Of a stretch of 49,185 nucleotides of DNA, positions 11,812 through 46,254 are shown in pieces. Both the position numbers and the translations under genes were made by a program. Origin of the DNA: a virus. The stretch lies in IMG/VR virus record IMGVR_UViG_3300045988_177308, positions 1-49,185 of that record, one strand, 5' to 3'. Below the pieces are notes generated by a model. It was not told the origin of the DNA. It did not search any database and was given only the letters and a program-made list of their open reading frames with translations. Numbering within the stretch: the first letter of the stretch is position 1; every line of letters starts with the position of its first letter.

Positions 11812-11856
11812 GAATAGCACAGGGCGTCTCCTCTCCGCCCTGTGCTATTCTTGTTT
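11812..11856 (+). terminator. rho-independent terminator after major tail gene
   Basis: 15-bp perfect stem gaatagcacagggcg/cgccctgtgctattc followed by ttgttt. Confidence 0.8.
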
Positions 11857-11895
11857 ACGACGTTACCCTAACGCCTAACAGAGAGGATTTCAAAT

Positions 11896-17614: not shown

Positions 17615-17616
17615 GA

Positions 17617-18420
17617 ATGCCCAAACGACCCAAAGTGTGGTTCGGCACACTGAATGACATGCGTTGGATTGACGCACCCGTGGCTAACTTCCAAAGCAAC
17701 AGCACAGGGTTCAACTACAGCGCTACGACGCTGAGAGGCGACGGCTTCGCCAAGAGGTCTGCGTTGACACACAGGGAGTTCACGCTCACTTGGGCGGCCA
17801 ACACCGTAGCTGAGCACGCTGCCCTGCTGTACCTACTGTCTACCAACGAGCTGCTTTACTACGTAGACCCGTTGGCTATGAAGACGAACCTCCTGCCGCT
17901 GTTCATGTCTCACTACACGCCTAACGCTACAGTTTTCACGGATGATATACCCCATGTGGCAACGCCCGGCGCATACAACGGAGCCCCGGCGATGTCGTGG
18001 AACCCCGCGTGGATCTGGCAGATCGGCCAGAAGATCCACTGGCCGGAAGGCTACAAGCTGTGGGCGGGGTGCCGCGGGGACGGAACGATTCAGATAAACG
18101 ACACAGCGGTCACGGCGGTCAGCGAGTTCGACGGCCGCTATGTCACGACGATGATCCCGACGAACAACGTCAGCAACCCGTGGGGCGAACTCCAGATGTG
18201 GGCAAGCTCCCGGATATCCAGTATCTGTGTGCGAGCCTACCCTGAGACGCAGGTTAAGACGATCAACGACGTGCCGAACAACTACGGACCGTTCCTGCCC
18301 GGCATGGGATATGGGGCACTCCAGCAGAAGGAGCCGTATTCGATACAAGAGTACAGCGCAGCGATCGACGGCTATGAGGTAGCCGTAACTGCGACGTTCG
18401 TTGAGAAGGTGCTGCTGTGA
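17617..18420 (+). CDS. distal tail protein (Dit-like)
   Basis: Position directly after TMP; 267 aa. Confidence 0.55.
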   Translation: MPKRPKVWFGTLNDMRWIDAPVANFQSNSTGFNYSATTLRGDGFAKRSALTHREFTLTWAANTVAEHAALLYLLSTNELLYYVDPLAMKTNLLPLFMSHYTPNATVFTDDIPHVATPGAYNGAPAMSWNPAWIWQIGQKIHWPEGYKLWAGCRGDGTIQINDTAVTAVSEFDGRYVTTMIPTNNVSNPWGELQMWASSRISSICVRAYPETQVKTINDVPNNYGPFLPGMGYGALQQKEPYSIQEYSAAIDGYEVAVTATFVEKVLL

Positions 18421-19895
18421 GCATCGCACCCGAACCCTTCGAATACAGGACGGACCGCTCGCTGGAGTCGTTCTCTGCGCAGTGGGACCGCATGTCGTAC
18501 AGCGTCCCGGGTGGCACTAAGGGCTACCCGGTTATGACGTTGACGGACCGGTTCTTCAAGCCGGCGGACGTGTCGACGACGTGGACGAACAAGCACCCTG
18601 TGTCGAGCGTGTACGAGTTCCGGGGGGATGTGCGAACGTTCACATCCAACTACTCGACGAACACCGTGACCGTCGATGACCTGTGCTATAAACTCAAGCA
18701 GGTAAAAGTCGTCCCCACGCAGTACAATAACTTCCGCAACGTGGTCGTCGAACTGTTCAAACTGTGCGACTATGACAAAGTGTACGTGGACGGTTTCATT
18801 AAGGCGGACCAGTACAACCCGATCATCATGGCGCCGGGCGGGTCGTTCAACGTGTGGGATTACTTGAACACTTTGTGCGCGGTGCATAACGTGTACATGC
18901 TCCGCCAGAACTCTAACCTGCTGTTTCTTCGCGACAACAACTTCCTGAAGGAGCACATGAACAATGTGACGGGTATGAGCTACAGCGTGGACCTCGCACA
19001 GTCCACTAAGACGGTGAAGACCACGTACAGGCCCATGCGCTATGCCTACAACGAGTATTTGCCGTTGAGCAAGGAGTCGCGGGACACGATCATCCAGGTG
19101 GACGCTCGGAAGACCGTGGAGCAGACGATCACGCTCGACGCTTATGTGATCGAAGCCATGACGCCATGGGTGACCCAGTGCAAGGACTACATCCCGGCGA
19201 AGGACACGTCGGGCCTGGAGTACACTGCTTACTGCGTCGCCGGGAACGACGGGCTCCCGATCACGGCATCCCAGTGGCTGGGGCAGGGCGGCAGCCTGTC
19301 TGTGCGCCTCGACCCGAAGAACCACAACCAGATCATCGTTACTGTGCGCGGCATGGTTACGTCGGACTATTCGCCTTTCCGTATCGCCGCCTCTTCGGGA
19401 CCGTCTAACTACTACAACTCGCTGCGATTCCGCGGCACGGGGTTGGTCATGGGGCCGGAGGATACGTACGTAACGCACACAGGATCATCGACACTGGGCA
19501 GCGACGAAGAGCAGATCAACAACCCGCTGATCAACACTCCGTCTCTGGCGATAGACAACGGCCTCCGGGCTGTGTGGGAAAAGTCAGGGTCGATCCCGAC
19601 GATCACACTCACGTCGCCAAACCTGGAGTCGCGCACACCATCCACCACGGGTAATGACCTGTTTCTGGCGTCCGGGTCGGCCTTCGACTACGGCGGGGAC
19701 CGATTCATGACGACGCACGTCGATATGAACAATCAGGAGATCACGGTAACGGCCACGTCTCGTATCACCTGTGACGAATTCTCCAACACCCTCAATACGG
19801 GCACGACCTTGGCCGACTATGAGGATAAGATCCCTAAGACGATCTACAACGTGTTCCAGTTCAATCAACCGCACAAGGAGTACAAGCCGGAATGA
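18417..19895 (+). CDS. minor tail protein (Tal/baseplate-like), lower-GC composition
   Basis: Position after Dit; Asn/Tyr/Thr-rich, clearly lower GC than rest of genome. Confidence 0.55.
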   Translation: MSIAPEPFEYRTDRSLESFSAQWDRMSYSVPGGTKGYPVMTLTDRFFKPADVSTTWTNKHPVSSVYEFRGDVRTFTSNYSTNTVTVDDLCYKLKQVKVVPTQYNNFRNVVVELFKLCDYDKVYVDGFIKADQYNPIIMAPGGSFNVWDYLNTLCAVHNVYMLRQNSNLLFLRDNNFLKEHMNNVTGMSYSVDLAQSTKTVKTTYRPMRYAYNEYLPLSKESRDTIIQVDARKTVEQTITLDAYVIEAMTPWVTQCKDYIPAKDTSGLEYTAYCVAGNDGLPITASQWLGQGGSLSVRLDPKNHNQIIVTVRGMVTSDYSPFRIAASSGPSNYYNSLRFRGTGLVMGPEDTYVTHTGSSTLGSDEEQINNPLINTPSLAIDNGLRAVWEKSGSIPTITLTSPNLESRTPSTTGNDLFLASGSAFDYGGDRFMTTHVDMNNQEITVTATSRITCDEFSNTLNTGTTLADYEDKIPKTIYNVFQFNQPHKEYKPE

Positions 19896-20506
19896 TACCC
19901 AACAAAAACCTAGGCGCCGGCGACACATGGGGTTCGTGGGTGCAGGACGAGATCTCGTCCATCAACTCAGGCCTCAGCAACTTAGGGATCGGTGGTGTGC
20001 GCAACTCGCTGAACGGGCTGATGAACAACATAGACAACACCAACAACAAGCTGTCGTTCCGCTCCCTCACAGGTGATTTACGACAGCTTGGTCCTAACAC
20101 CAATGAGGTCCTGCTATCGGAAAACATCCTCAATTACCCAGAGAATGGAAAGGGTTACCTGAACTTCTTCTTCTTCGGTAGTGGACGATATGTGAATACA
20201 GGTGCCTCCGACGCTTTCCGGTCGAAGATGCAGCTTATCGTTCGAACAGCTTGGACCCCCGTAGGCGGAACGCAGACGAAATTCGAAGAATACTACGTCT
20301 CACAGATGCCAGGTATGTTCAATGGAGAGATAAACCCGGGTTTCTACGATCTCTATGCGTTCTTCAACATGACGGTGCCCCGTGTCACACAAGTGTCTTT
20401 TCGTCTTGTCGGGGAAAACAGACTGACGAGCAACCCTCACAAAGAGTTCTACAACTACTTCAACGGCACTATACTGGTAATGGAATCCAATCAGCCTAAC
20501 ACGTAA
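19892..20506 (+). CDS. minor tail protein (putative receptor-binding)
   Basis: Gly/Asn-rich, low GC, synteny. Confidence 0.5.
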   Translation: MIPNKNLGAGDTWGSWVQDEISSINSGLSNLGIGGVRNSLNGLMNNIDNTNNKLSFRSLTGDLRQLGPNTNEVLLSENILNYPENGKGYLNFFFFGSGRYVNTGASDAFRSKMQLIVRTAWTPVGGTQTKFEEYYVSQMPGMFNGEINPGFYDLYAFFNMTVPRVTQVSFRLVGENRLTSNPHKEFYNYFNGTILVMESNQPNT

Positions 20507-20517
20507 GGAGAGGAAAC

Positions 20518-21066
20518 ATGGCTACAACGGACAGCAACGGGATCGCACACATCGAGGGAACGGATCCCGTCAAGCCCCTGCAGGGCTTATTCAACACGAT
20601 ATCGTCGTCCGTGTCCAACGTCGTCGGCAAACTGCGTAAGCAGGTCATCTACCCGGTGAAGACGCGGTGGGATGCGCAGAACAAGGTGGATGAGCTGAAA
20701 CGCCAGGGCGTGGAGGGCACGGCCGACGAGCCGATCATCTTCAATATTCTGAATGACCGTATCCAGATTCAACACGACGGTTCGAGCTTCTCCTATTTCA
20801 GCGCGCAGATGGCAGTTCTCGCAGCCGGAGTATTCGAAACTGGCTATCAAAGGTGGGAGCAGCATAAGATCAAATCATTCACCGTCCCCTTCCCGGAGGA
20901 GCTTGACCGTATACCACGTTCTCTCCTGTGCCAGGTGACGGACGCCATAACGCACAACATCATTGCGTTTCCGGTGGATAAGAAACAGTTCGGCGTCGCC
21001 GCCGCTTGTAACTGGCCGTGGCCTGTCGACTCGAATGTACACGTCAGCTGGGTGGCCCTCGGTTAA
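20518..21066 (+). CDS. minor tail protein
   Basis: SD taaggagaggaaac; last gene of rightward structural block. Confidence 0.5.
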   Translation: MATTDSNGIAHIEGTDPVKPLQGLFNTISSSVSNVVGKLRKQVIYPVKTRWDAQNKVDELKRQGVEGTADEPIIFNILNDRIQIQHDGSSFSYFSAQMAVLAAGVFETGYQRWEQHKIKSFTVPFPEELDRIPRSLLCQVTDAITHNIIAFPVDKKQFGVAAACNWPWPVDSNVHVSWVALG

Positions 21067-23345: not shown

Positions 23346-24059
23346 TTATGCGAGCCTGAGGATATAGCGGTCGAAGCCAGCGGCCTGCACGCATTCAACG
23401 AGCTCCCGTCGGCGTTTCTCCCAGCGCTTCCTGTCCCACGAAGCTGCCACCAGCTGGAATGCCACCGGCGTACCCTCTGTGCGAGCCTCCTGCAAGGCGA
23501 AGGTGCGCACACCGGCCAACCTCAGCTGGGAAACGAGGTCTTCGAAATTGTAGTCGATGAGCGACTCGGGGTAGACGGTTGTGCGAACTTCGTAGTCAAC
23601 TCCGGACTCCAAAACGAGGTCAAGGGTCCTCCAGACTTTGTCTCCTCGCACACCGACGGCTTTCTTGTAGTCCTCGGGTCTGGCTTTTACGTCGAGCCCA
23701 ACCCAGTTGACGACGTGCATCATGCGCTCTAGCCGATCGGGGAACATCCCGGACGTGTGTACGCCGATCTCGAAACCGAGATCTGCGGCGGACTCGGCGC
23801 ACGGGATGACCGCCTCCTGGCGCAGTGCCTCTCCACCTGTGAAGACGACGCCGTCGAGCAGCCCGACGCGCCGCTTGAGAAACCCTTCGACTTCGCTCCA
23901 CGGAATGACGCCCGGTGTGCGATTGTCGAGGATGGCTGAGTTCTGGCAGTACGGGCACCTGAGCGGACAACCCTGGCAGAACACGGTGGCTACGAGCCGG
24001 CCGGGCCAGTCCACTGACGACAGTGGCACCAGCCCGGCCACCTGAAGGTCGTCGCTCAC
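23346..24059 (-). CDS. nrdG: anaerobic ribonucleotide reductase activating protein (radical SAM)
   Basis: CQGCPLRCPYC (CxxxCxxC) cluster motif; GTGA overlap with nrdD stop. Confidence 0.85.
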   Translation of the reverse strand: MSDDLQVAGLVPLSSVDWPGRLVATVFCQGCPLRCPYCQNSAILDNRTPGVIPWSEVEGFLKRRVGLLDGVVFTGGEALRQEAVIPCAESAADLGFEIGVHTSGMFPDRLERMMHVVNWVGLDVKARPEDYKKAVGVRGDKVWRTLDLVLESGVDYEVRTTVYPESLIDYNFEDLVSQLRLAGVRTFALQEARTEGTPVAFQLVAASWDRKRWEKRRRELVECVQAAGFDRYILRLA

Positions 24060-25846
24060 GCCTTCACGCTCTCCTTCTCCGTGAAACACGTCCTCTCGGC
24101 GTACTCACCTTTCTTCCCGATGTTAAACGACTGCACAGGCCTGAAGTACCCCATGACCCTCGTCCACACCTCACAGGCTTCACCGCACGTCTCACACACG
24201 AAATGCTCACCGGCGAGATAGCCGTGGTTGGGGCAAATCGAGAACGTGGGGGTGATGGTGATGTAGGGAAGGTGGAAGTTGGTGAGCGCCCTCTTAACCA
24301 ACTTGGCGCACACGGCACCGGACGAGATCTTCTCGTTCATGTACAGGTGCAGGACGGTGCCGCCCGTGTACATGGATTGAAGATCTGCTTGTTCTTCCAG
24401 AGCTTGGAAGGCGTCCTGTGTGTGCGACACAGGAAGCTGCGAAGAGTTCGTGTAGTAGGGGTTCTTATCGGTTCCCGCTTGGATGATGTTGGAGAAGCGC
24501 TTCCTGTCTTCCTTGGCGAACCTATACGTCGTTCCTTCCGCAGGGGTCGCCTCCAGGTTGTACAGGTTGCCAGTCTTCTCCTGATATTGTACGAGGCGCT
24601 CTCTCATGTGCGCGAGAAGCCTCTTCGCAAAGGCGTGGCCCCACTCGGTGGTGATATCTTCCTTATCGTGTGTGAAATTGCGGATGGCTTCGTTGACGCC
24701 GTTGACGCCGATCGTGGAGAAGTGGTTGCCGAGTCCCCCGAGGTAGCGCTTGCTATAGGGGAAGAGACCCCGCTCCATAAGCTCGGCGATCTTGATCCTC
24801 TTCTTCTCCAGGGTGGACGATGCAAGGTCCATGAGGTGGTCTAGCCTCTCGTAGAGCGCTTCTTCGTCCCCGGCCCACATGTAGCCGAGCCTCGCGGCGT
24901 TCACGGTGACGACGCCTATGGAGCCCGTGAGCTCGGCCGAGCCGAACAAACCGTTGCCCCGCTTCAGGAGCTCGCGCAGGTCGAGCTGGAGGCGGCAGCA
25001 CATCGAGCGGATCATGCCCGGGTCGAGCTCGGAGTTGATGAAGTTCTGGAAGTAGGGCAGGCCGTACTTCGCGGTCATATCGAACAGGGCGCGGGCGTTG
25101 TCCGACTCCCAGTCGAAGTCCTTCGTCATGTTGTAGGTCGGGATCGGGAAGGTGAAGACGCGGCCGTCGGCGTCGCCTTCCATCATGACCTCGATGTAGG
25201 CGCGGTTGATCGTGTCCATCTCGGCCTGGAGGTCCCCGTACGTGAAGTCGCACAGTACACCGCCTATAAGCGGATGGTTGTCCTTGATATCCTCAGGGCA
25301 CGTCCAGTCGAACGTCAGGTTCGTGAAGGGGCATTGGCTGCCCCAACGGCTTGGAACGTTGAGATTGAAAATGAGCTCTTGCATTGACTGCTTGACCTCC
25401 GCATAGTCCAGCCCGTCGAGCCGGATGAACGGCGCCATGTACGTGTCGAAGGACGAGAAGGCCTGGGCCCCCGCCCACTCGTTCTGCAGCGTGCCGAGGA
25501 AGTTGACGATCTGGCCGCAGGCCGACCTGAAGTGACGCGGCGGATCGGAGGCGATGGCCCCCGCGATGCCGTTGAATCCCTCTTCGAGCAGGCGGCGCAG
25601 CGACCAGCCCGCACAATAGCCCGCGAGCATGTCGAGGTCGTGGATATGGTAGTCGCCGTTTCTGTGTGCGGCTCCTTCTTCTTCGCTGTACACCTTCGAC
25701 AGCCAATAGTTCGCGATCGTCTTGCCGGCGGCGTTGAGAATGAGGCCGCCGACGGAGTAGCCCTGGTTCGCGTTCGCGTTGACGCGCCAATCCGCCTGCT
25801 CCACGTACTCCTCCACTGTGGAGATGGGGTCGATGTTAACAGTCAA
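24056..25846 (-). CDS. nrdD: anaerobic ribonucleoside-triphosphate reductase (class III)
   Basis: 596 aa; glycyl-radical motif RVMGY near C-terminus, C-terminal CxxC...CxxC zinc ribbon. Confidence 0.95.
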   Translation of the reverse strand: MTVNIDPISTVEEYVEQADWRVNANANQGYSVGGLILNAAGKTIANYWLSKVYSEEEGAAHRNGDYHIHDLDMLAGYCAGWSLRRLLEEGFNGIAGAIASDPPRHFRSACGQIVNFLGTLQNEWAGAQAFSSFDTYMAPFIRLDGLDYAEVKQSMQELIFNLNVPSRWGSQCPFTNLTFDWTCPEDIKDNHPLIGGVLCDFTYGDLQAEMDTINRAYIEVMMEGDADGRVFTFPIPTYNMTKDFDWESDNARALFDMTAKYGLPYFQNFINSELDPGMIRSMCCRLQLDLRELLKRGNGLFGSAELTGSIGVVTVNAARLGYMWAGDEEALYERLDHLMDLASSTLEKKRIKIAELMERGLFPYSKRYLGGLGNHFSTIGVNGVNEAIRNFTHDKEDITTEWGHAFAKRLLAHMRERLVQYQEKTGNLYNLEATPAEGTTYRFAKEDRKRFSNIIQAGTDKNPYYTNSSQLPVSHTQDAFQALEEQADLQSMYTGGTVLHLYMNEKISSGAVCAKLVKRALTNFHLPYITITPTFSICPNHGYLAGEHFVCETCGEACEVWTRVMGYFRPVQSFNIGKKGEYAERTCFTEKESVKA

Positions 25847-26922: not shown

Positions 26923-29010
26923 TCAGTGGGAGGCGTGCTCCCAGTCGTCTGCCGGCTGCCCGTGTGCGGCTGTGAACTCCACCCCGTTCCACGTCGTGGA
27001 CATAAGCTCGGCGATTTTCGGCACCGCCCATTCTAGCTCGGATTCGGGGACGGAGAAAATCAGCTCGTCGTGGATTTGTGCGCGAAGCCAGTGAATGAGG
27101 CGAATGTCACATTTCAGCATCCGGATGAGCGCGTCGGTCATGATCTCCCGCGTCCCGGACTGCCCCATGAGAGCCGAGGACTGCGTGTAGGACCGCTCGA
27201 CGTTGACGCTCATGCGCCTGCCCCACGCGTTGTAGATCCAGCCGTTCTCCCCCTGATCCGCACAGTCCTGACGCCATTCGACGACCCGTGGATAGGCTTT
27301 CGCCATCTGTTTGACGAAGTGTTCCGCTATGTCTAACGGTTGTCCAGAAGCCTTGGCGATCGTCTTCGCCCCGCCTCCATAGTTCCAGGCGTGCGAGAGC
27401 GCCTTGGCTTTCTGGCGGTACGGGTTGTGCTTTCGCGCCTCAGGATCGGTCTCCCAGCCTTCAGGCATGTGCGCCTCGTACTCTTCGTCGCCCCAGACGG
27501 CTCGACCCGTGATCTCGTGCGGGTCGGCGCCGGGCAGGAAATTCTTCAGGTATGCGGGGTCCTGTGCGTAGCCGGCGACGATCCTCGCATCCGCATTCGA
27601 GTAGTCGAACGACACCAGCTTGCAGCCGGGGTCCGGGATGAAATAGGACTTCTCCACAGCGTTGTCTCCGCGAGCCGTCCACACGGTCAGGCCGGGCTTT
27701 GTCGTCGACGAGCGTCCGGAGCGCTGAAGATCGTCGACCTCGGGATGCACACGGCCGTCAGGCTGCAGACAATCGATTGTGAGCTGCGCAAGAGAGCGCT
27801 GGCCCAGTAGCTCGCCCAGAACCTTTCCGAAGGCCTCAGCGTGGCTTCCGTGGCCTCTGAGGAGGTCCTGTACGACGCTGCCGGATAGCTGCAGAGCGCC
27901 CGTCGGTGTGCGAGGCCACTCGGGGTGCGTGAACTCGTCCACACCGAACGCAGCCAGGGCGTCGAGGACACACTGCTTGCCTTTAGTAGTCCGCCACGGC
28001 TGCTTCGAATCGAGCGGCATGCCCACCGACTGGTGAAGGTAATCGAGCAGTTTCTCCTTCCTGTCCGCCAACTCGTAGAGCCTGTCATAAGCCTTGTCGG
28101 CGTCGATGAGGAAGCCGTTCCTCGACATCTGCGCATTGATGGCGGCCTTCAACTGTTCGCGCCAATCATACTCGTCGACCTCATGACGAAGCAGAAGCTC
28201 CTTGAAAATACCCCTGAGCACCACTACGTCCTGTTCGGAATACTCGCGGAACGTCGAATCGTCAAGCGGAATCAGTCCGAAGTCGAGATCTGCGACCTTC
28301 GTCCCCGGGGAGTTGAACTGCTTGGCGAGGTCTTTCAAGTCCATGACCTTGCCTTCCAATCCCAGGTGGTATGCGAGGTTGTCGAGCGATAGCCATCTGC
28401 GCACATTCGAAGGACTGAGGTCGGTGACGACGCGACGCCCAGCCCTATCCAGGTAGACGGACGGAGCGGGATAGGCGATGTTCGCCAGCACCATGGTGTC
28501 GATGACCTTGCGATCCATAGTCATCTTTAGCGGTTCGTCGCTGTCCTTGCCGAACAGCACGGACAAGTCGAAGTTGTGGCCATTGTGGATCACTACGCCG
28601 TCGGCTTGCCGAATAGCGTCTATGACTTCGTCGTAGTCCTCCGTCAAGACGACGGGGCCCTCGCCCCACGCATACTGCCCGAGTCGGAAGAACTCGCGCG
28701 GTGACATGGACCAGCGCTTCTCGACCCCGTGGGACTCGATGTCGAGGAATAGGATCTTCGACCATTCCCCGCCGAACGGCGACGACCACGCGCCGTTGTC
28801 CAGTAGATAGCGTCGCACAACACCGGCGAACCACTGGGCTGCCGTGTCGATGCCGCAGTCAACCCACGGTTCGAGGTCGAAGACAGCAGCGCCTTCCTCG
28901 GTGTCTGACCACTCATAGTTGAGGGGTCCGAGCTCCGGGTGGGCAGCCACCGCCACCTCCTTGAACATCTCGATGTCGCCGGATGCCAGGTAGAATCGCA
29001 CAGTCCTCAC
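26923..29010 (-). CDS. DNA polymerase I (family A) with 3'-5' exonuclease domain
   Basis: Exo motif FLDIESHG; motif B RQKAKALSHAWNYGGG; motif C HDELIF; start placed at GTG overlapping upstream stop (GTGA). Confidence 0.9.
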   Translation of the reverse strand: MRTVRFYLASGDIEMFKEVAVAAHPELGPLNYEWSDTEEGAAVFDLEPWVDCGIDTAAQWFAGVVRRYLLDNGAWSSPFGGEWSKILFLDIESHGVEKRWSMSPREFFRLGQYAWGEGPVVLTEDYDEVIDAIRQADGVVIHNGHNFDLSVLFGKDSDEPLKMTMDRKVIDTMVLANIAYPAPSVYLDRAGRRVVTDLSPSNVRRWLSLDNLAYHLGLEGKVMDLKDLAKQFNSPGTKVADLDFGLIPLDDSTFREYSEQDVVVLRGIFKELLLRHEVDEYDWREQLKAAINAQMSRNGFLIDADKAYDRLYELADRKEKLLDYLHQSVGMPLDSKQPWRTTKGKQCVLDALAAFGVDEFTHPEWPRTPTGALQLSGSVVQDLLRGHGSHAEAFGKVLGELLGQRSLAQLTIDCLQPDGRVHPEVDDLQRSGRSSTTKPGLTVWTARGDNAVEKSYFIPDPGCKLVSFDYSNADARIVAGYAQDPAYLKNFLPGADPHEITGRAVWGDEEYEAHMPEGWETDPEARKHNPYRQKAKALSHAWNYGGGAKTIAKASGQPLDIAEHFVKQMAKAYPRVVEWRQDCADQGENGWIYNAWGRRMSVNVERSYTQSSALMGQSGTREIMTDALIRMLKCDIRLIHWLRAQIHDELIFSVPESELEWAVPKIAELMSTTWNGVEFTAAHGQPADDWEHASH

Positions 29011-31403
29011 TCGTCCACCACCATTGTGTAGAACCAACCCTTGGACTTCTTGCTCTTACCCTTGCCTCGAATGTATTCGAGCTCGACCGGGCCGGAGATA
29101 AGACCCCTGCCTCGCAGTGACGAGATGATGTTCTTGTACGTCCACTCGTCCAACTCAGGGAATTTATCCCGGACCTTTGTGCACAGGATGGCGTGGTTAG
29201 CCTTGTCGCAGTGCGTGCGAATGAACGTCATGACCGACTCCTGCTGCTTGACGTAGTGGCTGGCCGTAACGTCGTTGAGCGCTTTGAGCAGACACCGCAC
29301 CCAGTGGTTGGCATAGTAGATGGCGTTCAACATGTGTGTCTTGGTGATGACGCCGTCGTCCCGGTCCATGAGGCTGAACAGCCCGGCGACCTGAGGGACG
29401 GTGATGCACAACCTGCGGAACGCCGACTCGAAGATCGATGACTTGTCTTCGACGATGTCGAAGCGCTGTACATTGAGACACCATGTCTCGTAGCGGTCGA
29501 GCGCCTCGTCGTCCACGTCGAGGAGAATGCGGTTCACGTCGAGCTCCCGCTCCTGAAGTCGCTGCTCTACGTCGGGCACGTCGTCAGTCTTGTAGCACAC
29601 GTGGCACAGTTGATTGACGCGACTCGCCAGGGTGTGCGCGAGCTTCTGCGCCTTCCTGTCTCGGTCCTTGCTGTTGCCGAACTTGCGGCGACTGTTGAAC
29701 ATAGCAGCGATCTTCGGCTTATCATCGCTTTTACTCTCGTTGTCTTCTTCGATGTACGTCACCCACGTGAAACGCGTGAGGAACCCGTTCTTGAAGTTGC
29801 GCATTTCGAGGATGTCGATTGACTCATCGTAGATACCAGTGAGAATCACATTGAGGTGTGCGTTAGCGCGATCTACACCCTCAGTCGTGATACGACGGGT
29901 CATCTCGACTTCGCCGCTGAACAACTTGCACAGGCCGGCGTCGAAGCCGTTCCACGACCCGCGGTTGTCCATGATATCTCGGAACTTGTCTTGGATCTCA
30001 TCGAGGGCCATGTACGTTGGCGTGTTGTGAAACGGAGCGATGTCACGCTTCATAGCTTGGATAGTGGAGTCGCTTGCCACTTTGATGCTGTTGGTGCGCC
30101 CGACCAGAGTGCTGCACGAGTCGATGACGGTCTGAGCGCCGTTGACGGCTGTGGTCTTGTGCGCAGTACCGGAGGGGCCGAGGATGAGCGGCCAGAAGCG
30201 AAGACCCTGCTCGTCGTCCCCCGTCGTGTTGATGGACCCGAAGGCTCCGATCGTCGTAGCCATCGTCACCAAACCAAGCGCAGCATGGTAGGCGTCCGCA
30301 GTATCCGTCACTGTGCGACCATAGTCGATATAATCCTTGATGAACGTGGGGTTGTCGTCACTCTCTATAAAAGCCACTTCGTCGTCGGTGAGAAGCTGGA
30401 TCTCACCAGTCTGATACTCGCGAATGGCATTGGCAAAGCTTTCGTCCCCGAGAGCGATGCCATTCTCATCGAGGTGCGTGAAGCTGTCCTTATACTCCTT
30501 ACTGAACTTCTCGACCTCCTTCCACGTGCACAGCTCCCAATTATCCCGCCTCGGGATAGCGTGGCCTTCCTTGGTTTTCCGACCAGCGTAGACGGGGTTG
30601 TACTTGTTGCAGTGTGCGCGGAGCATCAACTGGTATACCTCGTTGTCGGTGAACGTAGAACGAAATAGCTCCATCTGGAACTTCTTGGCCGTCTGAGACC
30701 AACTCTGACGCCCGTCCTCGATCTCGTCGAGATACATAGACCGAAGCGACTGCGTCTTGAGCTTATCTTCGATGACGCGAAGCTGCTCATCATCGCACAT
30801 AGGGGGCGCTTCTCCGACCTTCTTCGCCTCTGCGAGGAGCACAACGGGGTAGACCGCCTTAATCTCATCCAACGTGTAAACGGCGCCGATGTTCTCCACC
30901 ACGCGCACAGGGTAGTCTGCGCCGTACTTCGTGTTGACGGAGCCCGGCACTCGAAGCAGCTTGGACGCCTGCCAGCCGGAGTCGCAGCCTTTGTCACGGT
31001 GCTTCTGATAGATGGACCTCGCAACCTCTGAGCACTCGGCCAGCGAGTATGCCTTGTCGAGGACCCACCAACAATGCGTGCGACTTCTCGATGTGCGCAC
31101 AACCAAACTCGGCTCAACCTCGAATTCGCTCGGCGGGCAGGTATCGGCCTCAGCCCACACGACATTGCACATAGCCCCTTCGTCATCGCCTGAGCGGCTC
31201 TTGCCTGTGAAGACGCCGACCGAGCAGTAGGTGTTCTCATCCTCGCGCATCGACAGGTAGCGCTGGGCGAAGTCGCGCTTCTCCGGCCACTCGACGAATT
31301 TGCTTTTAACGGTCTCCTCCTCATCGAGGGGATCCATCGTCACGATGTTGATGTACCCTTCGATGTCCCCATAGATCATGTCCAGGAATTCTATCGCTTC
31401 CAT
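29007..31403 (-). CDS. DNA primase/helicase (prim-pol N-terminal domain plus NTPase domain)
   Basis: 798 aa; P-loop-like GPSGTAHKT; position upstream of polA; start at ATG preceded by agagaaaggaagagaag. Confidence 0.65.
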   Translation of the reverse strand: MEAIEFLDMIYGDIEGYINIVTMDPLDEEETVKSKFVEWPEKRDFAQRYLSMREDENTYCSVGVFTGKSRSGDDEGAMCNVVWAEADTCPPSEFEVEPSLVVRTSRSRTHCWWVLDKAYSLAECSEVARSIYQKHRDKGCDSGWQASKLLRVPGSVNTKYGADYPVRVVENIGAVYTLDEIKAVYPVVLLAEAKKVGEAPPMCDDEQLRVIEDKLKTQSLRSMYLDEIEDGRQSWSQTAKKFQMELFRSTFTDNEVYQLMLRAHCNKYNPVYAGRKTKEGHAIPRRDNWELCTWKEVEKFSKEYKDSFTHLDENGIALGDESFANAIREYQTGEIQLLTDDEVAFIESDDNPTFIKDYIDYGRTVTDTADAYHAALGLVTMATTIGAFGSINTTGDDEQGLRFWPLILGPSGTAHKTTAVNGAQTVIDSCSTLVGRTNSIKVASDSTIQAMKRDIAPFHNTPTYMALDEIQDKFRDIMDNRGSWNGFDAGLCKLFSGEVEMTRRITTEGVDRANAHLNVILTGIYDESIDILEMRNFKNGFLTRFTWVTYIEEDNESKSDDKPKIAAMFNSRRKFGNSKDRDRKAQKLAHTLASRVNQLCHVCYKTDDVPDVEQRLQERELDVNRILLDVDDEALDRYETWCLNVQRFDIVEDKSSIFESAFRRLCITVPQVAGLFSLMDRDDGVITKTHMLNAIYYANHWVRCLLKALNDVTASHYVKQQESVMTFIRTHCDKANHAILCTKVRDKFPELDEWTYKNIISSLRGRGLISGPVELEYIRGKGKSKKSKGWFYTMVVDE

Positions 31404-31447
31404 CTTCTCTTCCTTTCTCTTCCGAACCGACGGTGTCTTATAGAGCA

Positions 31448-31472
31448 GGAACGGCCCCAACGGGGCCGTTCC
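31448..31472 (-). terminator. hairpin ggaacggcccc-aac-ggggccgttcc
   Basis: 11-bp perfect stem, 3-nt loop, between two minus-strand genes. Confidence 0.45.
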
Positions 31473-36105: not shown

Positions 36106-36662
36106 GCCCGCACCACCTCGAACTTCGCGCACGAGATATCGATCGAACGTACCAGAATGTCCATGTTCAGACCGATCGAGAATGCCTTAATGTAGTACTT
36201 GTCCACATCCGCCTTACCTTCAGGGTCCTTCGTCAAGAGGAACTCAGTACCATCGTATTTACGGCGGCACCATACATATCCCTGATCTTTCAGAATACCC
36301 GTCACCGAATCGGCAGGACACTCCTCCCCCTTCACGTGGAAAGGAGGGTCGTAGAAGCGATCCACCGTGTGCCGTGACGCGTCGTAGTAATACCCGGACG
36401 GGGCCTTGCCAGGTCTGAAAGGCGGTTCGTCCTGCTTGACCAGAATCAATCGAATCCCGTTGCACGTGTAGAAGACCTGCCGCTCCGACGCGTACCCGAT
36501 GCTGATAGCCCGGAACGGCTTGCCCTTGGCGTCTTCCACCGTCTCCCGATATGAGTTGTGCATCGCCTCACTTGACGTCGGCACATAATCCAGCGTGTCG
36601 TCCAGATTGACGGCGAACCAGCCCTCCAGCGGTCCCTTCTTCCCGTACAGCAACTGCCTCAC
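36102..36662 (-). CDS. putative DNA N6-adenine/N4-cytosine methyltransferase
   Basis: DPPF motif (FYDPPFH); GTG start overlapping whiB stop; 186 aa. Confidence 0.45.
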   Translation of the reverse strand: MRQLLYGKKGPLEGWFAVNLDDTLDYVPTSSEAMHNSYRETVEDAKGKPFRAISIGYASERQVFYTCNGIRLILVKQDEPPFRPGKAPSGYYYDASRHTVDRFYDPPFHVKGEECPADSVTGILKDQGYVWCRRKYDGTEFLLTKDPEGKADVDKYYIKAFSIGLNMDILVRSIDISCAKFEVVRA

Positions 36663-36946
36663 AGCTTGCCCTCCTCTTCTCTCCGTGCCCGGCGCTCGAA
36701 CGAGTCTTCCCCGCCTATCACGCCGAACAGCCTCTTCTGCCCTTTCTCCACGCGGTCCGCATAGTCCCTGCACTCACGTCGCACGGGGCAAACCGAGCAC
36801 ACCCACTTGGCCCGCGCATAGTAGGGGTCGTCCTCGACGTCGGCCCCCTCGCGGGGAGCGAAGAACAGGTGCATGCCGATGTCGCTCTTCTTGCAGCGCG
36901 CCTGCTTGACCCATTCTTCGCCCCTCCAGATGTCAGCGATGTCCAT
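36659..36946 (-). CDS. whiB: WhiB-family transcription regulator
   Basis: Four-Cys pattern C-x29-C-x2-C-x5-C and C-terminal basic tail. Confidence 0.8.
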   Translation of the reverse strand: MDIADIWRGEEWVKQARCKKSDIGMHLFFAPREGADVEDDPYYARAKWVCSVCPVRRECRDYADRVEKGQKRLFGVIGGEDSFERRARREEEGKL

Positions 36947-37488
36947 TACCGTTTCTTCACACACCCCTTGAGGCGGGACAGCTGGGGACCGATCGGGTTA
37001 CGGTAGTGCCCTTTTGTGTTGTACGGTTCCCTAGCCTTCGACGAAAGTTTCATGAATGACACCTGAGCGATCGGCTCCACACCGGTCGAATCCAACAACA
37101 GGTCGAAAACCGTCGGAAGAATCAACGGGTGGGAATTGACGTTGTATAGCTCCAGGGTGATCATCCCCTCGAACCCAGGATCGATGAAGCCTGCGGTGAT
37201 GTGCGTCAACAGCCCGAGGCGGCCCCAACTCGACCGGCCCTCCACCTGTGCGGCGATATTCGCTGGGAGAGAGAACTTCTCCAAGGTCGCTCCGAGCCAC
37301 AGTTCGCCGGGCGGGAGAACGAACTCGCTCCGTGCGCCCCAGGCCACATGCCGCTCACCTGTCTTCGTGTTGAGAAAGTACGGGCCTAGGTGCACGTCGT
37401 AACTAGCCGGTTGAAGGCAATCATCACGGAGCGGGTCCACCAGTCCCGTACGCTTCGCCAGTTTTTTAATGTCTCTGTCAGATAACAT
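36946..37488 (-). CDS. dcd: dCTP deaminase / dUTPase family
   Basis: ASYDVHLG, EGRSSWGRLGL, HITAGFIDPGFEG motifs. Confidence 0.8.
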   Translation of the reverse strand: MLSDRDIKKLAKRTGLVDPLRDDCLQPASYDVHLGPYFLNTKTGERHVAWGARSEFVLPPGELWLGATLEKFSLPANIAAQVEGRSSWGRLGLLTHITAGFIDPGFEGMITLELYNVNSHPLILPTVFDLLLDSTGVEPIAQVSFMKLSSKAREPYNTKGHYRNPIGPQLSRLKGCVKKR

Positions 37489-38698: not shown

Positions 38699-38728
38699 AA
38701 AGGGCGGGGGCCGTCAAGCCCCCGCCCT
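38699..38728 (-). terminator. intrinsic terminator (minus strand)
   Basis: gggcgggggc/gcccccgccc 10-bp stem, followed on minus strand by TTTCC. Confidence 0.6.
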
Positions 38729-38748
38729 GTGAAATACGTCACTGTTTG

Positions 38749-41099: not shown

Positions 41100-41134
41100 C
41101 GCACACGGGGCGGCAGTCAAGCGCCCCGTGTGCG
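41100..41134 (-). terminator. 13-bp GC hairpin
   Basis: cgcacacggggcg/cgccccgtgtgcg. Confidence 0.45.
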
Positions 41135-41141
41135 ATGTACG

Positions 41142-41771
41142 TCACATTCCCCTTTGCAAGCCCGTGGTCCATTCGGCGATCTCCGCAGCCACGGAATCGG
41201 GCGTGTCGACGGGGGGGTCCACGACGATCGGTATGAACCTCGACAGCTCCCCCGCGACGAACGCGTTCGTCAGGAACGTCCGGTACGCCTCAGTCACCGC
41301 GAGGGGGTCGTAGCCGTCGGGGTCCGGGTAGTCCGGGTCCGTCAACTCGGCGGGGTCGCGGGGCATCAGCACGAACGTCGTCAGCGGAACGCGGTTCAGC
41401 CAGTTCAGCGTGAGCGCTACGTTCTCCGGTATGGGCTCGCCCCGCAGCGAGGCGTACACCTCGCTGCTGAGCGCCCACCTGTCCAGAATGTACAGCTGTT
41501 CTTCGCTCGCACTCGTCGGAGTGTCGGGGAACAGCACGGGCTCCGGTCGGAAGGAGAGCCAGTTCTCCATATCCCTCGCGTAGTCCTCCGCCTTCAGGCG
41601 GTGGTTTTCGCTTTGTGCACACACAGTCAGCACGTCCGTGGGGAAGTGCCGTATGCGCACATCGGAGTAAGAGGGGGCGGCGGTGCGGCTTTGAAAGAGC
41701 TCTTTCAGGGCTGCTGCTACAGTCGACTTCCCCACTCCGTCGGGACCCTCCAGTGCTATGTAAACTGCCAT
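41142..41771 (-). CDS. tmk: thymidylate kinase
   Basis: P-loop IALEGPDGVGKST characteristic of dTMP kinase. Confidence 0.8.
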   Translation of the reverse strand: MAVYIALEGPDGVGKSTVAAALKELFQSRTAAPSYSDVRIRHFPTDVLTVCAQSENHRLKAEDYARDMENWLSFRPEPVLFPDTPTSASEEQLYILDRWALSSEVYASLRGEPIPENVALTLNWLNRVPLTTFVLMPRDPAELTDPDYPDPDGYDPLAVTEAYRTFLTNAFVAGELSRFIPIVVDPPVDTPDSVAAEIAEWTTGLQRGM

Positions 41772-42745: not shown

Positions 42746-43321
42746 TTATCCCCTTCCTCTAATGTCTTTCGCCATCTTCACCGCAGCCCGATATTCAGGC
42801 CACTGCTTCTCGTAGGGCCGGCGGTCCGCATCCCAGTAGTCCTTGTAGCTCAGCCCGGGGTTGGCCGCTATGAACTCGGCCAGAGAAGTGTAGAAGGCCT
42901 CCTTGAAGCGCTTGGCGCGTAGTTTGCGCGCCAGTTTTGAGGGGTCCGCCGGGTCTTTTCCGCGCAGGTCCACTTCGGACAGCGGGTTTGATTTGAACTC
43001 GCGGAACATGAGCCTTAAGCGCTTTCTCGCCGATATGTTGTCCCGTTCAGCGCCCGACAGCATCGCATCGTCCAGAGACGACGGCGTGGCGACGGCCACG
43101 CCGAGAGCTTCGAGTGCGGCCTTCAGAGAGCTGTAGCGCACAGGGGGGAGGAACTCCTCACCCCCTGTTTGCATCAGCTCGGGCACTATCAGGAGCGCCT
43201 TGTCGGCGTAGTTCGAATTGAGAACGATTCTCACTCCGTATTCGCTCTCCACGTCGGCTCGCAGTCCCTGTTCGTCCAGGTTTTCGTCGGCGACTTCGAT
43301 CGCCACGGCAATCCGTTTCAT
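42746..43321 (-). CDS. first gene of leftward early operon, hypothetical (191 aa)
   Basis: ATG 43321 after gagaggagaaatcgag. Confidence 0.55.
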   Translation of the reverse strand: MKRIAVAIEVADENLDEQGLRADVESEYGVRIVLNSNYADKALLIVPELMQTGGEEFLPPVRYSSLKAALEALGVAVATPSSLDDAMLSGAERDNISARKRLRLMFREFKSNPLSEVDLRGKDPADPSKLARKLRAKRFKEAFYTSLAEFIAANPGLSYKDYWDADRRPYEKQWPEYRAAVKMAKDIRGRG

Positions 43322-43355
43322 CTCGATTTCTCCTCTCACTCGAAAATGTATTTTC

Positions 43356-43422
43356 GATCGATTTCGACTCACATTGCGTGATCGATTTCAACTCGATTTT
43401 ATCCTAGGGACGGATCGATTTC
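43356..43422. repeat. three direct copies of GATCGATTTC (A/G-extended 16-mer) plus two partial copies in the leader of the leftward operon
   Basis: Copies at 43356, 43380 and 43413; third copy sits inside the promoter spacer. Confidence 0.55.
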
Positions 43423-43429
43423 AAGTCAA
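43401..43429 (-). promoter_or_regulatory. leftward promoter TTGACT-17-TAGGAT
   Basis: Read on minus strand: -35 at 43429-43424, -10 at 43406-43401. Confidence 0.45.
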
Positions 43430-43455
43430 ATCGTGGAATGTGAATTTGGTCACAG

Positions 43456-43477
43456 TAGTGTTGTGAGGGGTTGTGTT
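43456..43477 (+). promoter_or_regulatory. extended -10 element TGtTATAAT (rightward)
   Basis: gtgttataatc; no good -35. Confidence 0.3.
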
Positions 43478-43572
43478 ATAATCACGCGCCCGCGCGCACC
43501 CGACCCGGCGCACACCACATAGATCGGCGAGATGTCGCGGGTTCTGTGTCAAGCTCGGCCCCGGGGCGGTGG

Positions 43573-43624
43573 AAATTCTGACAGTGACTGTCAATTGACA
43601 GTGACTGTCAGAATTTCGATACAT
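43573..43624 (+). promoter_or_regulatory. twin 15-bp palindromic operators TGACAGtgaCTGTCA x2 flanked by inverted gaaattc/gaatttc, overlapping a TTGACA -35 (43595-43600) with TACAT-type -10 about 18 nt downstream
   Basis: Exact repeat 43579-43593 and 43596-43610 separated by 2 nt. Confidence 0.6.
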
Positions 43625-43952
43625 CTTTGAATTGAGAATCATTCTCACTAAGGAAAATACTCCTAATACACCACCCCCACACATACTACTACAACGTTAT
43701 ATATCCCTATTTGTATATTCCTTGTAATCCCTTGGTTTCCCTCCTTTGAAATTACAAAACCTCTTGGATCAGGGCAATGTGCTTGATCAATAAGGCGATG
43801 TCACACCCCGGGTATACCCAGCACGGTTTGCACTTGATGCTGTTTAAGAACAACGTGTTCTGCGTCTGTTCAGTTTTGTCACATTCTTCACACGCCCCCG
43901 CTGCGTGGGCTGTGCGCCTGGGGGTGTGCGCCTCCTCGCGGGCCCAGTTGCG

Positions 43953-44060
43953 CCTCAGGATCACGAGGTTGCCCTCTGAGGCGTTTTCAGGGTCGCCCCG
44001 GTAGGGTCGCTTGGGTAAGGGGCTGAAATCGCCTCAGAATCGATCCTCGTGATCCTGAGG
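43953..44060. repeat. 16-bp perfect inverted repeat CCTCAGGATCACGAGG / CCTCGTGATCCTGAGG, 76 nt apart, with a nested 9-bp inverted repeat
   Basis: Read directly; loop contains agggtcgc x2. Confidence 0.5.
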
Positions 44061-44150
44061 GGGTGCCGCTCGACCGCCGGTGCTGTGTGGTGTGCGCCTC
44101 GGGACTGTCCGTTCCGCTCGACCGCCGTTCTAATTTCCCTTATCTTTGAG

Positions 44151-44222
44151 CCCCGAAATTCGAAAATGGCCCTCTTTGTACCCGAAACCTGCCCCCGAAA
44201 TTCGAAAAGGGGCTTCTTTGTA
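44151..44222. repeat. two tandem ~41-bp direct repeats CCCCGAAATTCGAAAA..CTTTGTA
   Basis: 44151-44180 and 44192-44222. Confidence 0.5.
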
Positions 44223-44253
44223 ACGTTTAATGACAACCTTTACCTACGTAACC

Positions 44254-44379
44254 GTAAGTTACTGCTACGTAGGTGTAAGTTACCCTGTGGTAGGTTACGC
44301 TGGTGTAGGTTACTGGTGAGTAAGTTACCCAGTGGTAGGTTACGGCTTCGTAGGTGTAACCTACTGCGAGGTAGGTTAC
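44254..44379. repeat. iteron-like array: eight 9-mers GTA(A/G)GTTAC (one inverted) with 15-bp periodicity
   Basis: Copies at 44254, 44275, 44290, 44305, 44320, 44335, 44356 (inverted) and 44371. Confidence 0.7.
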
Positions 44380-44427
44380 CGTGGCGTATGGCGCTCAGAA
44401 ATGTGGTGAAGGACACACCGCTGGGGC

Positions 44428-44456
44428 TTGACACGGGGGGTGGCGGTTGATAGAAT
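44428..44456 (+). promoter_or_regulatory. consensus promoter TTGACA-17-TAGAAT (cassette 1)
   Basis: Perfect -35, 17-nt spacer, TAGAAT -10, followed by conserved leader agagagaaaggaaacccca. Confidence 0.7.
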
Positions 44457-44495
44457 GGAGGTACAACAAAGGGGAAAGAGAGAAAGGAAACCCCA

Positions 44496-44582
44496 ATGGA
44501 CATCGAAATCGACTTCTTCGAGGAGCTCGGCGGCTACTACACCGCAGACCTGGCAGACGTCCTGGAAGACTTCGAAGGCTGA
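44496..44582 (+). CDS. tiny acidic ORF (28 aa, MDIEIDFFEELGGYYTADLADVLEDFEG)
   Basis: ATG 7 nt after extended SD, in identical cassette context to the larger genes; followed by GC hairpin. Confidence 0.35.
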   Translation: MDIEIDFFEELGGYYTADLADVLEDFEG

Positions 44583-44585
44583 CCC

Positions 44586-44613
44586 GAAGGCCCCCGCCCC
44601 GGCGGGGGCCTTC
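44586..44613 (+). terminator. GC hairpin after tiny ORF
   Basis: gaaggcccccgcc/ggcgggggccttc. Confidence 0.45.
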
Positions 44614-44817
44614 CCATGCCCGCAGACGCGCCCCAGAATGGCCCCTGAGGCGCCTTCGGAGCCGGGGTGGGGCCACCCTACCGGCGAAGGCCCGCCAGGC
44701 TCTCAGGGGGCCGTCTGCGAGCTCGGAGGGGCGCCCCCGAAGGCGGGGGCTGGGCGCCTCCGGAGACGGCCCCGAGCAATTACGCAACGTCGGTGTTGCG
44801 AAAATCCCGGAACTCAA

Positions 44818-45043
44818 AATGTGAGCTTGGTCTCACTTTCGTGAAATCGGGACTAAAGTCCTAGCTCGAGGAACCATGTGAGCAATCTCACACTCGGAGA
44901 GGCTCTCGAGCAACCATGTGAGAAACATCACAATGTGAGATACATCACGCTCGGAGGGGCTCTCGAGGCTCTCGAGCAACCATGAAAAATACATTTTCCA
45001 GGGGCTCTCGAGCAACCATGAAAATGTGACACACACCATACCC
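44818..45043. repeat. four tandem degenerate repeats (CTCGGAGRGGCTCTCGAGCAACCATG...) containing five ATGTGA(G) motifs and palindromes TGTGAG-N4-6-CTCACA
   Basis: Palindromes at 44821-44836 and 44878-44893; ATGTGA at 44819, 44876, 44916, 44932 and 45022. Confidence 0.5.
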
Positions 45044-45050
45044 GAGCGGC

Positions 45051-45085
45051 TTGACACGGCGCCTCCGGCTGTGCGAGGATAGAGC
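45051..45085 (+). promoter_or_regulatory. cassette 2 promoter (TTGACA, then TGcGAGGAT extended -10 at 18 nt)
   Basis: -35 perfect; -10 assignment uncertain (TAGAGC lies 23 nt downstream). Confidence 0.35.
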
Positions 45086-45116
45086 CATCGGAACAACAGA
45101 GAGAAAGGAAACTCCG

Positions 45117-45338
45117 ATGACCGCGAAGTACCCCTACAGCCAGGCCCTGGCGAAGTCGCTCACCGAGAAGCTCGGGGGCCTCGCCTTCGTCCTGCCCGAC
45201 GGCGCAGTCCAGGCCGATACCCCCGACGGCACCCTGACCGTCTACGCCGACGGCGCCGTGAGAGTTCGCGAGTGCGGCGAAACCGAAGCCTGGCCCACCC
45301 TCCGCAGCGCCGTCGCCGACTGGGGCGTGGAAGTGTGA
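45117..45338 (+). CDS. small early protein (73 aa)
   Basis: ATG after agagaaaggaaactccg. Confidence 0.6.
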   Translation: MTAKYPYSQALAKSLTEKLGGLAFVLPDGAVQADTPDGTLTVYADGAVRVRECGETEAWPTLRSAVADWGVEV

Positions 45339-45739: not shown

Positions 45740-45909
45740 GGCGTTTCTGGGCGTCCGTCGCCGTCGCAGCCGGCATCCTGGCCGGCTGGGGCTGCGGCGA
45801 GGATCTCGGCCGCTGGGACGCCTACGCGGGCATCCGCGACGAACCGACGGTGCTGGGCTTGACTGTGATACAGGTCATACACTACGGGCTTGACACAGCC
45901 GCCCGATAG
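45736..45909 (+). CDS. possible small membrane ORF (57 aa)
   Basis: GTGA overlap with upstream stop; hydrophobic FWASVAVAAGILAGWGCG; reads through cassette 4 promoter. Confidence 0.3.
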   Translation: MRRFWASVAVAAGILAGWGCGEDLGRWDAYAGIRDEPTVLGLTVIQVIHYGLDTAAR

Positions 45910-45919
45910 CCACTAGACT
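45890..45919 (+). promoter_or_regulatory. cassette 4 promoter TTGACA-18-TAGACT
   Basis: Followed by agagatatcag...agagaaaggaaaagctg. Confidence 0.55.
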
Positions 45920-45955
45920 AGAGATATCAGCGAAGACGAGAGAAAGGAAAAGCTG

Positions 45956-46204: not shown

Positions 46205-46215
46205 CGACATCACAC

Positions 46216-46254
46216 CGAAGGCCGCTTGACAGCGGCCTTCGGGCCGACTAGACT
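46216..46254 (+). promoter_or_regulatory. cassette 5: inverted repeat cgaaggccgc/gcggccttcg with TTGACA loop, 17 nt, TAGACT
   Basis: Read directly. Confidence 0.6.

Follow-up and report, generated by a model that had tools for sequence, protein, structure and literature searches.

A conserved pair of 15-bp palindromes in an exchangeable, gene-free cassette of an oral phage family: a candidate operator array

The virus record IMGVR_UViG_3300045988_177308 of IMG/VR was analysed over its positions 1 to 49,185 (the window, 49,185 bases) and carries two divergent transcription units. The leftward genes run from position 43324 down to 21.4 kb, and the rightward genes run from about 44.5 kb across the window ends to about 21 kb. 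Both units diverge from a 1.17-kb gap free of open reading frames (ORFs; 43325-44496), and this gap contains the element under study: a 15-bp palindrome, TGACAGTGACTGTCA, hereafter P1, which occurs twice (43579-43593 and 43596-43610). The two copies are 2 nt apart, as had been stated in the original prediction, an earlier reading of the window's letters; from centre to centre the distance is 17 bp, and each copy is a perfect palindrome of 7-1-7 geometry. The larger inverted context noticed at that time is also present and reads GAAATTC-TGACAGTGACTGTCA-AT-TGACAGTGACTGTCA-GAATTTC (43572-43617); its true start is 43572, the coordinate given earlier (43573) lying one base inside the palindrome. 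The sole asymmetry of this 46-nt palindrome is the central G of each 15-mer. A repeat finder lists the 15-mers as a direct repeat without mismatch, spaced by 17 bp, and, in addition, the 23-nt arms 43572-43594 and 43595-43617 as 96% complementary with no gap. Folded as single-stranded DNA, the 46-mer reaches −18.8 kcal/mol compared with −5.3 ± 1.6 kcal/mol for shuffled sequences (z = −8.3). The exact 15-mer occurs at these two sites only in the window, and a window scan for TGACAG-N3-CTGTCA with up to two mismatches yields a single extra, unrelated match. In 12 of 24 related IMG/VR genomes, the twin keeps its distance of about 255-290 nt to the first gene on the leftward side, hereafter gene 1, and it recurs in human oral assemblies of independent origin. 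The observation holds, and chance does not account for it.

For comparison, the 24 related genomes were rebuilt from overlapping IMG/VR loci with zero conflicts, and to these were added 21 loci of ENA and Logan assemblies and three relatives of greater divergence. Across 31 copies of P1 from 16 genomes, 13 of the 15 positions are invariant; only the centre and the symmetry-related positions 4 and 12 vary. The 13 genomes with a twin—the window and 12 relatives—are near-invariant from 43572 to 43632, the preceding 25 nt being scrambled. As judged from these alignments, the conserved site beside a variable flank is a classic phylogenetic footprint. The pair had been described as having the geometry of cooperative repressor binding over a promoter. 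The first half of this description stands: 7-1-7 symmetry, invariant positions and variable flanks make P1 look like a site for a symmetric dimeric protein, and a dyad with conserved half-sites that is more conserved than its flanks is what operators of dimeric helix-turn-helix (HTH) proteins generally feature. The second half finds no support, as no usable promoter is recognised under the pair.

P1 is absent from 12 of the 24 close relatives, and about half of the relatives carry unrelated palindromes at the same position. The twin hence forms part of an exchangeable cassette (Table 1), which in the window is of the type P1-P1-P2. The other types seen are P1-P1-P3, P4-P4-P5, P3-P4-P5, and P4-P5; further ones combine a single P1 with other dyads or three tandem P1 with a TTGTTCGA...TCGAACAA dyad (N4-6 centre). 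P3 is defined as TGAGACAC-N-GTGTCTCA, P4 as GTTCAG-N2-CTGAAC, and P5 as TTATTTCG-N8-CGAAATAA. One clade features P3 in place of P2 at 43633-43647, and the association of P2 versus P3 tracks clade structure only. The copy number of P1 is 1, 2 or 3 at a fixed period of 17 bp, and six or more other palindromic modules take its place at exactly the same position. The divergent relatives L256 (about 2935-2985), L255 and L281 (about 3165) carry either three tandem P1 or one P1 together with GATAGTTCCACTATC, GTTCAATTTTGAAC, and CTTTGTTCGA-N4-6-TCGAACAAAG; the cassette is therefore an assembly of palindromic modules that have been shuffled. The cassette types are spread over several genomic backgrounds, and P1 and non-P1 cassettes are both maintained on the same ones. 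A gene-1 allele 94% identical to that of the window carries P4-P4-P5, whereas an 84% identical allele carries P1-P1-P2; linkage therefore decays within about 250 bp. In such a mosaic of alternative alleles with sharp breakpoints, the palindromes might be without function, as scars of recombination or as selfish filler at a junction; palindromes are recombinogenic, and one genome bears an inverted twin. An absence of function is highly improbable, as the invariance of P1 extends over at least three backgrounds and many independent samples while the adjacent bases vary, and the same modules are re-used in different combinations.

A palindrome may also act through its fold alone, its hairpins in RNA or single-stranded DNA terminating transcription, undergoing RNase III processing or stabilising a short leader RNA. 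Any strong hairpin would then do, which would explain the exchange of cassettes without a partner gene; the hairpin of the 46-mer is very stable, and a long hairpin with interruptions is also possible in the twin P4 cassette, where a U-rich stretch comes after it. The variation within P1 argues for another role. Its main variant, G12>C, is present in 14 of the 31 copies, disrupts one base pair in both the 15-mer and the 46-mer hairpins, and is matched by a complementary change in one genome only; it turns the half-site into TGAGA, which is the half-site of P2 and P3. Positions 7 (T7) and 9 (A9), which are unable to pair around a 1-nt loop, never vary. The three-copy P1 array folds no better than its shuffles (z = +1.1), and the single-copy P1 and P3-P4-P5 cassettes are without the long hairpin. 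The terminators of this genome are GC-rich hairpins, whereas the modules of the cassette are all rich in AT, with nearly perfect dyad symmetry around centres of 1-8 nt (1-3 nt in the stems that a structural role would invoke). The scan for intrinsic terminators calls none of these stems, and those of the twin are followed by GAUACAUC. A role of the fold alone is unlikely. Because G12>C breaks the pairing, the triple array folds poorly and the unpairable positions 7 and 9 are invariant, we conclude from the aligned copies that the conserved feature is probably a double-stranded sequence read by symmetric dimers rather than a hairpin.

The second P1 copy had been placed exactly at the start of a TTGACA taken to be a −35 box. 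The overlap with TTGACA (43595-43600) is present, the copy beginning one base in. A working −35 box is not found there: the hexamer itself is a perfect match, but the sequence 17 bp on is GATACA, which matches at three of six positions and is without the final T, so that no −10 box (TATAAT or TAnnnT) stands 16-18 bp downstream, and a promoter scan that called four other sites in the region makes no call. TTGACA arises from the joining of two copies through AATT. It reads cTGACA in single-copy and aTGACA in triple-copy cassettes and is, because of this loss, a by-product of site joining. Downstream, most relatives feature TACATC and a few TACATT or TACACT at 19 bp, the latter two fitting the actinobacterial TAnnnT. 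The single- and triple-copy cassettes differ downstream as well; promoter elements are not conserved wherever the operator is, and no promoter common to the other cassette types is visible. The earlier model of cooperative operators over their own promoter (−35 at 43595), whose de-repression would yield a long non-coding RNA across 43625-44496, is improbable on these grounds, despite the perfect hexamer and the few relatives with a fitting −10. The nearest convincing rightward promoter would be the extended −10 element TGTTATAAT, about 90 nt upstream of the twin; a start near 43489 would place the twin at about +90 to +121.

The 870 nt downstream of the twin had been called structured and non-coding, and both features, which would suit a long RNA, are found. 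ORFs in 43625-44496 are disrupted in most relatives, and the region is highly conserved and folds better than shuffled sequences (z = −3.6). One minus-strand ORF, 43961-44236, stays open; its variable sites are distributed 37/30/29 over the codon positions, with 15 non-synonymous versus 5 synonymous changes. Hidden small genes in the gap were rejected, the ORFs being broken or without codon-position signal. A search of 43200-45200 against Rfam 15 gave only sub-threshold chance matches, and compensatory covariation is found neither in the 43840-44240 block nor in the long-range pairings 43494-43522 / 43906-44098; both results count against the long-RNA model. An AT-rich stretch, delimited by eye, spans about 43618-43760, and the lowest GC content among the right-hand bins is that of 43001-44000 (0.53). 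The conserved block further downstream (Table 1) holds an inverted repeat with 38-nt arms (43953-44060), direct repeats, and duplicated CCCCGAAATTCGAAAA and GTKCCGCTCGACCGCCG motifs, and may serve as an origin of replication or a control region. The location, together with the repeats and the AT-rich stretch, agrees with such a role at least as well as with a specific RNA.

This neighbourhood raises a further reading by analogy with lambda-type origins, in which tandem 17-19-bp units with internal dyads lie beside an AT-rich stretch. P1 would then be an iteron of 17 bp in one to three tandem copies, bound by a phage initiator next to the unwinding stretch. Its location in the gap between divergent operons, the presence of more iteron-like repeats, and an upstream promoter as in transcription-activated origins are consistent with this. 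Unlike lambdoid iterons, which go with the O protein, P1 co-varies with no replication gene or other gene, and it is missing from half of the otherwise near-identical relatives. In addition, the GTAGGTTAC array (44240-44385), just upstream of the promoter at 44428, is the better candidate for origin iterons. That P1 itself serves as an iteron is quite unlikely.

The protein that would read P1 was sought among the genes of the phage. A megablast search of the window against 50,697 deposited phage genomes gives no nucleotide match. Its large terminase, capsid protein and PolA are 37-53% identical to proteins of Stenotrophomonas, Microbacterium, Arthrobacter, Clavibacter, and Mycobacterium phages. 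The gene content includes WhiB (36662-36964, minus strand), PolA, ThyA, DHFR, dCTP deaminase, a C5 methylase, and an NlpC/P60 lysin; the ORFs 24056-25846 and 29007-31460 we take to have the roles of an anaerobic ribonucleotide reductase (with activase) and a DUF3987 primase-helicase. By this gene set the phage looks lytic, and the ORFs scanned include no recognisable integrase or repressor. The presence of a WhiB gene indicates that the host is an actinobacterium. Rothia would be a guess from the GC content and the Micrococcaceae-phage affinities of capsid and terminase; a literature search on Rothia phages and WhiB returned nothing specific. The phage family is widespread: a protein identical to that of gene 1 is encoded on contigs of 49,075 and 49,132 bp from human oral metagenomes, gene 1 has 686 homologues, and many relatives come from IMG/VR samples that, by their ID series, we take to be Human Microbiome Project data.

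That no cognate repressor is evident, as originally stated, holds up under comparison. Outside 43548-43659, co-segregation with P1 is seen for no ORF and no nucleotide position: at the ORF level, no ORF of the window is systematically more similar in P1 than in non-P1 genomes, and a genome-wide per-nucleotide association returns the cassette itself only. A repressor gene that is linked to the operator and co-varies with it, as for CI/Cro-type systems, is therefore not seen. Pfam and PHROGs searches of 101 ORFs (a set without the structural block 3300-21000 and ORFs above 330 aa, of which the two largest, PolA and the primase-helicase, were scanned separately) yield two DNA-binding candidates, WhiB and the small terminase with its HTH, and no HTH or ribbon-helix-helix regulator besides. 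Most early genes are ORFans without a Pfam or PHROG assignment. Gene 1 was rejected as a regulator: it is an ORFan restricted to this phage family, and its product shows no DNA-binding fold that could be recognised; the AlphaFold model has a mean pLDDT of 68, and the best Foldseek hit (E = 0.25) leaves it without a significant PDB match. A search of the literature for the 15-mer found no paper.

The binder could still be one of the conserved phage ORFans. It would recognise the TGAsA half-sites of P1, P2, P3 and the palindrome at 43219 and loop the divergent promoter region, and other phage proteins would serve the other cassettes. TGASA-N5-TSTCA has four matches in the window, all within 43219-43647, compared with 0.24 expected; the 43219 site is present in all relatives, and the early genes are, as said, mostly ORFans. 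On the other side, every phage would have to keep binders for sites absent from its own genome, the 43219 site is coding and drifts at wobble positions, so that it could be a distal partner site or a coding coincidence, and the product of gene 1 is without a DNA-binding fold. We give this explanation little credence. As the cassette moves without an accompanying gene, the factor acting in trans would rather be one common to all of these phages, that is, a factor of the host.

The same motif occurs in other genomes. Twin TGACAG-N3-CTGTCA sites within 30 nt of each other are present at 29 loci in 185,579 species genomes—by our own rough estimate, not computed by a tool, about 0.07 would be expected by chance in this collection—and at 109 loci in JGI metagenomes, some loci of both sets being simple tandem repeats rather than operator pairs. 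At no fewer than 14 loci in Streptomyces, Kitasatospora and uncultured Actinomycetota, the pair lies directly upstream of a gene with TetR_N and TetR_C_14 domains; several of these have an NAD-epimerase/NmrA gene as divergent neighbour, and one (L136) carries the exact TGACAGTGACTGTCA. On an unrelated metagenome contig (L200, 7496-7545), the exact TTGACAGTGACTGTCAA occurs twice between an XRE-HTH gene and a 343-aa gene, whose start, by eye, resembles what we take to be a defence-system nucleotidyltransferase. In a Bosea group, the pair adjoins DUF1127 genes. To judge from these neighbourhoods, bacteria, those of the host phylum among them, use the dyad as a genuine HTH operator.

Among known systems, P1 shares with TetR operators (tetO1/tetO2 of Tn10; QacR IR1, bound by a pair of dimers) the 15-bp palindrome with a single central base, the pairing and the type of binder, HTH homodimers. 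The motif stands at tetR promoters elsewhere; unlike there, no cognate tetR gene is adjacent to P1 or in the same genome, the spacing is 17 bp, no promoter is identifiable beneath the sites, and the copy number ranges from 1 to 3. Lambdoid immunity regions (OR/OL, cI/cro) similarly feature adjacent dyad operators in a divergent control region and alternative sets at the same position. However, lambdoid operators travel with their repressor genes, whereas nothing co-segregates here and the phage looks strictly lytic. The operators of restriction-modification C proteins (C-box consensus GACT-N3-AGTC) and of CapH-type XRE proteins consist of two short palindromes a few base pairs apart bound cooperatively by two XRE-HTH dimers, to which the metagenome contig above may be compared; they differ from P1 in consensus, no XRE gene was found by Pfam in the phage ORFs scanned, and no regulated gene is adjacent. 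The stoperators of cluster A mycobacteriophages (L5, Bxb1) are repressor sites in transcribed DNA downstream of promoters and block elongation, not initiation. They are 13-14-bp asymmetric sequences, dozens per genome, oriented with transcription and bound by the phage's own repressor. Their mode of action is the one proposed below; P1 differs in being palindromic, in occupying one locus only, and in having no known phage repressor. Telomere resolution, serine-recombinase att/res sites, a MerR-type promoter, an insertion-sequence circle junction, and a REPIN were set aside because no recombinase was found, because other cassette types lack the symmetry or because the dyad is misplaced.

The account that we tentatively prefer, although we hold it a little short of probable, is that of an orphan operator array for a dimeric HTH protein that is unlinked and probably host-encoded and gates the upstream extended −10 promoter. 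The twin 15-mers would be double-stranded operators and form the left module of the exchangeable palindrome cassette. The cassette would lie about 90-160 nt downstream of the conserved extended −10 element, at the entrance to the AT-rich stretch and the origin-like region. From the sequences we infer that the sites are bound by a protein, that this protein is encoded by the host, that the upstream promoter is active, and that the bound protein acts as a roadblock. The binder would be supplied in trans, with the host as leading candidate source, e.g., of a TetR-family repressor. Once bound, it would stand as a roadblock or gate in the way of rightward transcription into the non-coding region rather than occlude a promoter of its own.

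Several observations weigh against this account. In one genome (9965_12), complementary changes on the two inner halves keep the long hairpin perfect. In another (9961_6; L021 / L002), both P1 centres are C, not G, so that the twin as a whole reads as the reverse complement of its usual form, which suggests inversion or template switching within the palindrome. Both genomes are compatible with some structural role of the palindrome. The evidence for the upstream promoter consists of sequence and conservation, and a roadblock at +90 is unusual for a classical repressor. The spacing of the sites at the bacterial TetR loci is 30-32 bp from centre to centre, compared with 17 bp here. The motif serves at least two HTH families and other factors and so fails to name the binder. 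A TetR was not detected in the phages: tblastn of four TetRs from such loci against the window and the 24 relatives gave E > 0.4 throughout, and no TetR_N domain is present among the 101 ORFs. Lastly, the co-variation analysis is blind to an invariant gene, e.g., one for a conserved phage ORFan binder.

Paired dyad operators are ordinary; unusual are the gene-free modular exchange, the variation in copy number, and the lack of a partner gene in a virulent phage. Operators are usually studied with a co-travelling repressor gene, whereas here a conserved operator-type array moves alone, in an abundant, uncultured family of human oral phages. It is possible, though doubtful, that lytic oral actinophages in general carry "plug-and-play" operator cassettes for host transcription factors—TetR-like and others—that are exchanged by recombination independently of phage genes. 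Through the cassette, different physiological signals of the host would then act on a conserved promoter that is early or close to the origin; alternatively, the operators would draw host repressors off their own targets by titration on the replicating phage DNA. Phage evolution would then have, in operator specificity, a mobile unit that contains no gene. Should host regulators prove to be the binders, a virulent phage would here offer a clear natural example of coupling between its early or replication control region and host transcription factors by way of interchangeable cis-modules. If the binder is an unrecognised phage protein, it would be a routine regulatory element in a new phage family.

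Table 1. Features in and around the intergenic gap (coordinates of the window)
Feature	Position	Strand	Remarks
P2-like palindrome TGAGAACGATTCTCA	43219-43233		Inside the first leftward gene, 414 bp from P2; with all cassette types; varies at wobble positions
Putative leftward promoter(s) TTGACT-17-TAGGAT, TTGAAA-17-TAAAAT	43396-43454	−	Hexamers at 43429-43396
Extended −10 promoter-like element TGTTATAAT	43474-43482	+	Perfect extended −10; 97% conserved; in every relative (anchor)
Exchangeable cassette, about 110 bp	43548-43659		Sharp borders; only genome stretch co-segregating with P1 presence
Composite near-perfect 46-bp palindrome	43572-43617		Near-invariant among 13 P1-bearing genomes
P1a, TGACAGT-G-ACTGTCA	43579-43593		First 15-bp palindrome; right half is CTCTCA in most relatives
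P1b	43596-43610		Identical 15-bp palindrome; its first bases and the preceding T spell TTGACA (43595-43600)
Short dyad ATACA-N4-TGTAT	43618-43632		Perfect in most relatives; degenerate in the window (GATACATCTTTGAAT)
P2, TGAGAATCATTCTCA, TGAGAAT-C-ATTCTCA	43633-43647		15 bp; 5-N5-5 geometry and TGAsA half-site as in P1
Conserved right flank CTCCTAATACACCACCCCCACACATACTAC	43660-43700	+	Homology between cassette types resumes here
Conserved non-coding block, 440 nt	43845-44285		90-98% identical across relatives; neighbouring proteins only 60-90%
Iteron-like repeats GTAGGTTAC / GTAAGTTAC / GTAACCTAC, about ten	44240-44385		Includes the 6-3-6 dyad GTAGGTGTAACCTAC; copy number varies between relatives
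Putative strong promoter TTGACA-17-TAGAAT	44428-44456	+	11/12 matches, with TG; would serve the rightward operon independently of the cassette

The leftward promoter region carries elements of its own. A TGTGAATTTGGTCACA site (43439-43454) stands 9 nt upstream of the leftward −35, and the same geometry is found at five other promoters. A role of this TGTGA-N6-TCACA site as class II activator of the rightward promoter was rejected, as the geometry fits the leftward promoter. TGTGA-N6-TCACA-like sites with at most one mismatch number 13 compared with 1.5 expected and are located in the window at 34622, 38728, 41131, 43439, 44820-44949, 45864, and 46199. Most of them are intergenic, 9-10 nt upstream of a CTTGAC −35. 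By their number and placement, they are taken to be a genome-wide regulatory motif, either of the CRP/GlxR type or for a phage factor. At 38700-38745, 41100-41146, 46214-46254, and 45880-45925, the −35 CTTGAC lies in the loop of a GC-rich hairpin and is followed by TAGACT or TATACA; these hairpins form a compact terminator-plus-promoter unit at operon boundaries. Three direct repeats of GATCGATTTC(G/A)A(C/G)TC extend over the leftward promoter and leader (43356-43431) and are kept in all relatives. The 5′ leader of gene 1 contains an 18-bp palindrome, TCGAAAATGTATTTTCGA (43340-43357), which recurs as GAAAAATACATTTTC (about 44984-45000) upstream of the gene at 45051; the two may be a second operator pair. 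The first rightward ORF, 44497-44583, would encode a strongly acidic peptide of 28 residues (MDIEIDFFEELGGYYTADLADVLEDFEG); the length of this ORF differs in all relatives, and the GC-rich hairpin after it has no U-tract.

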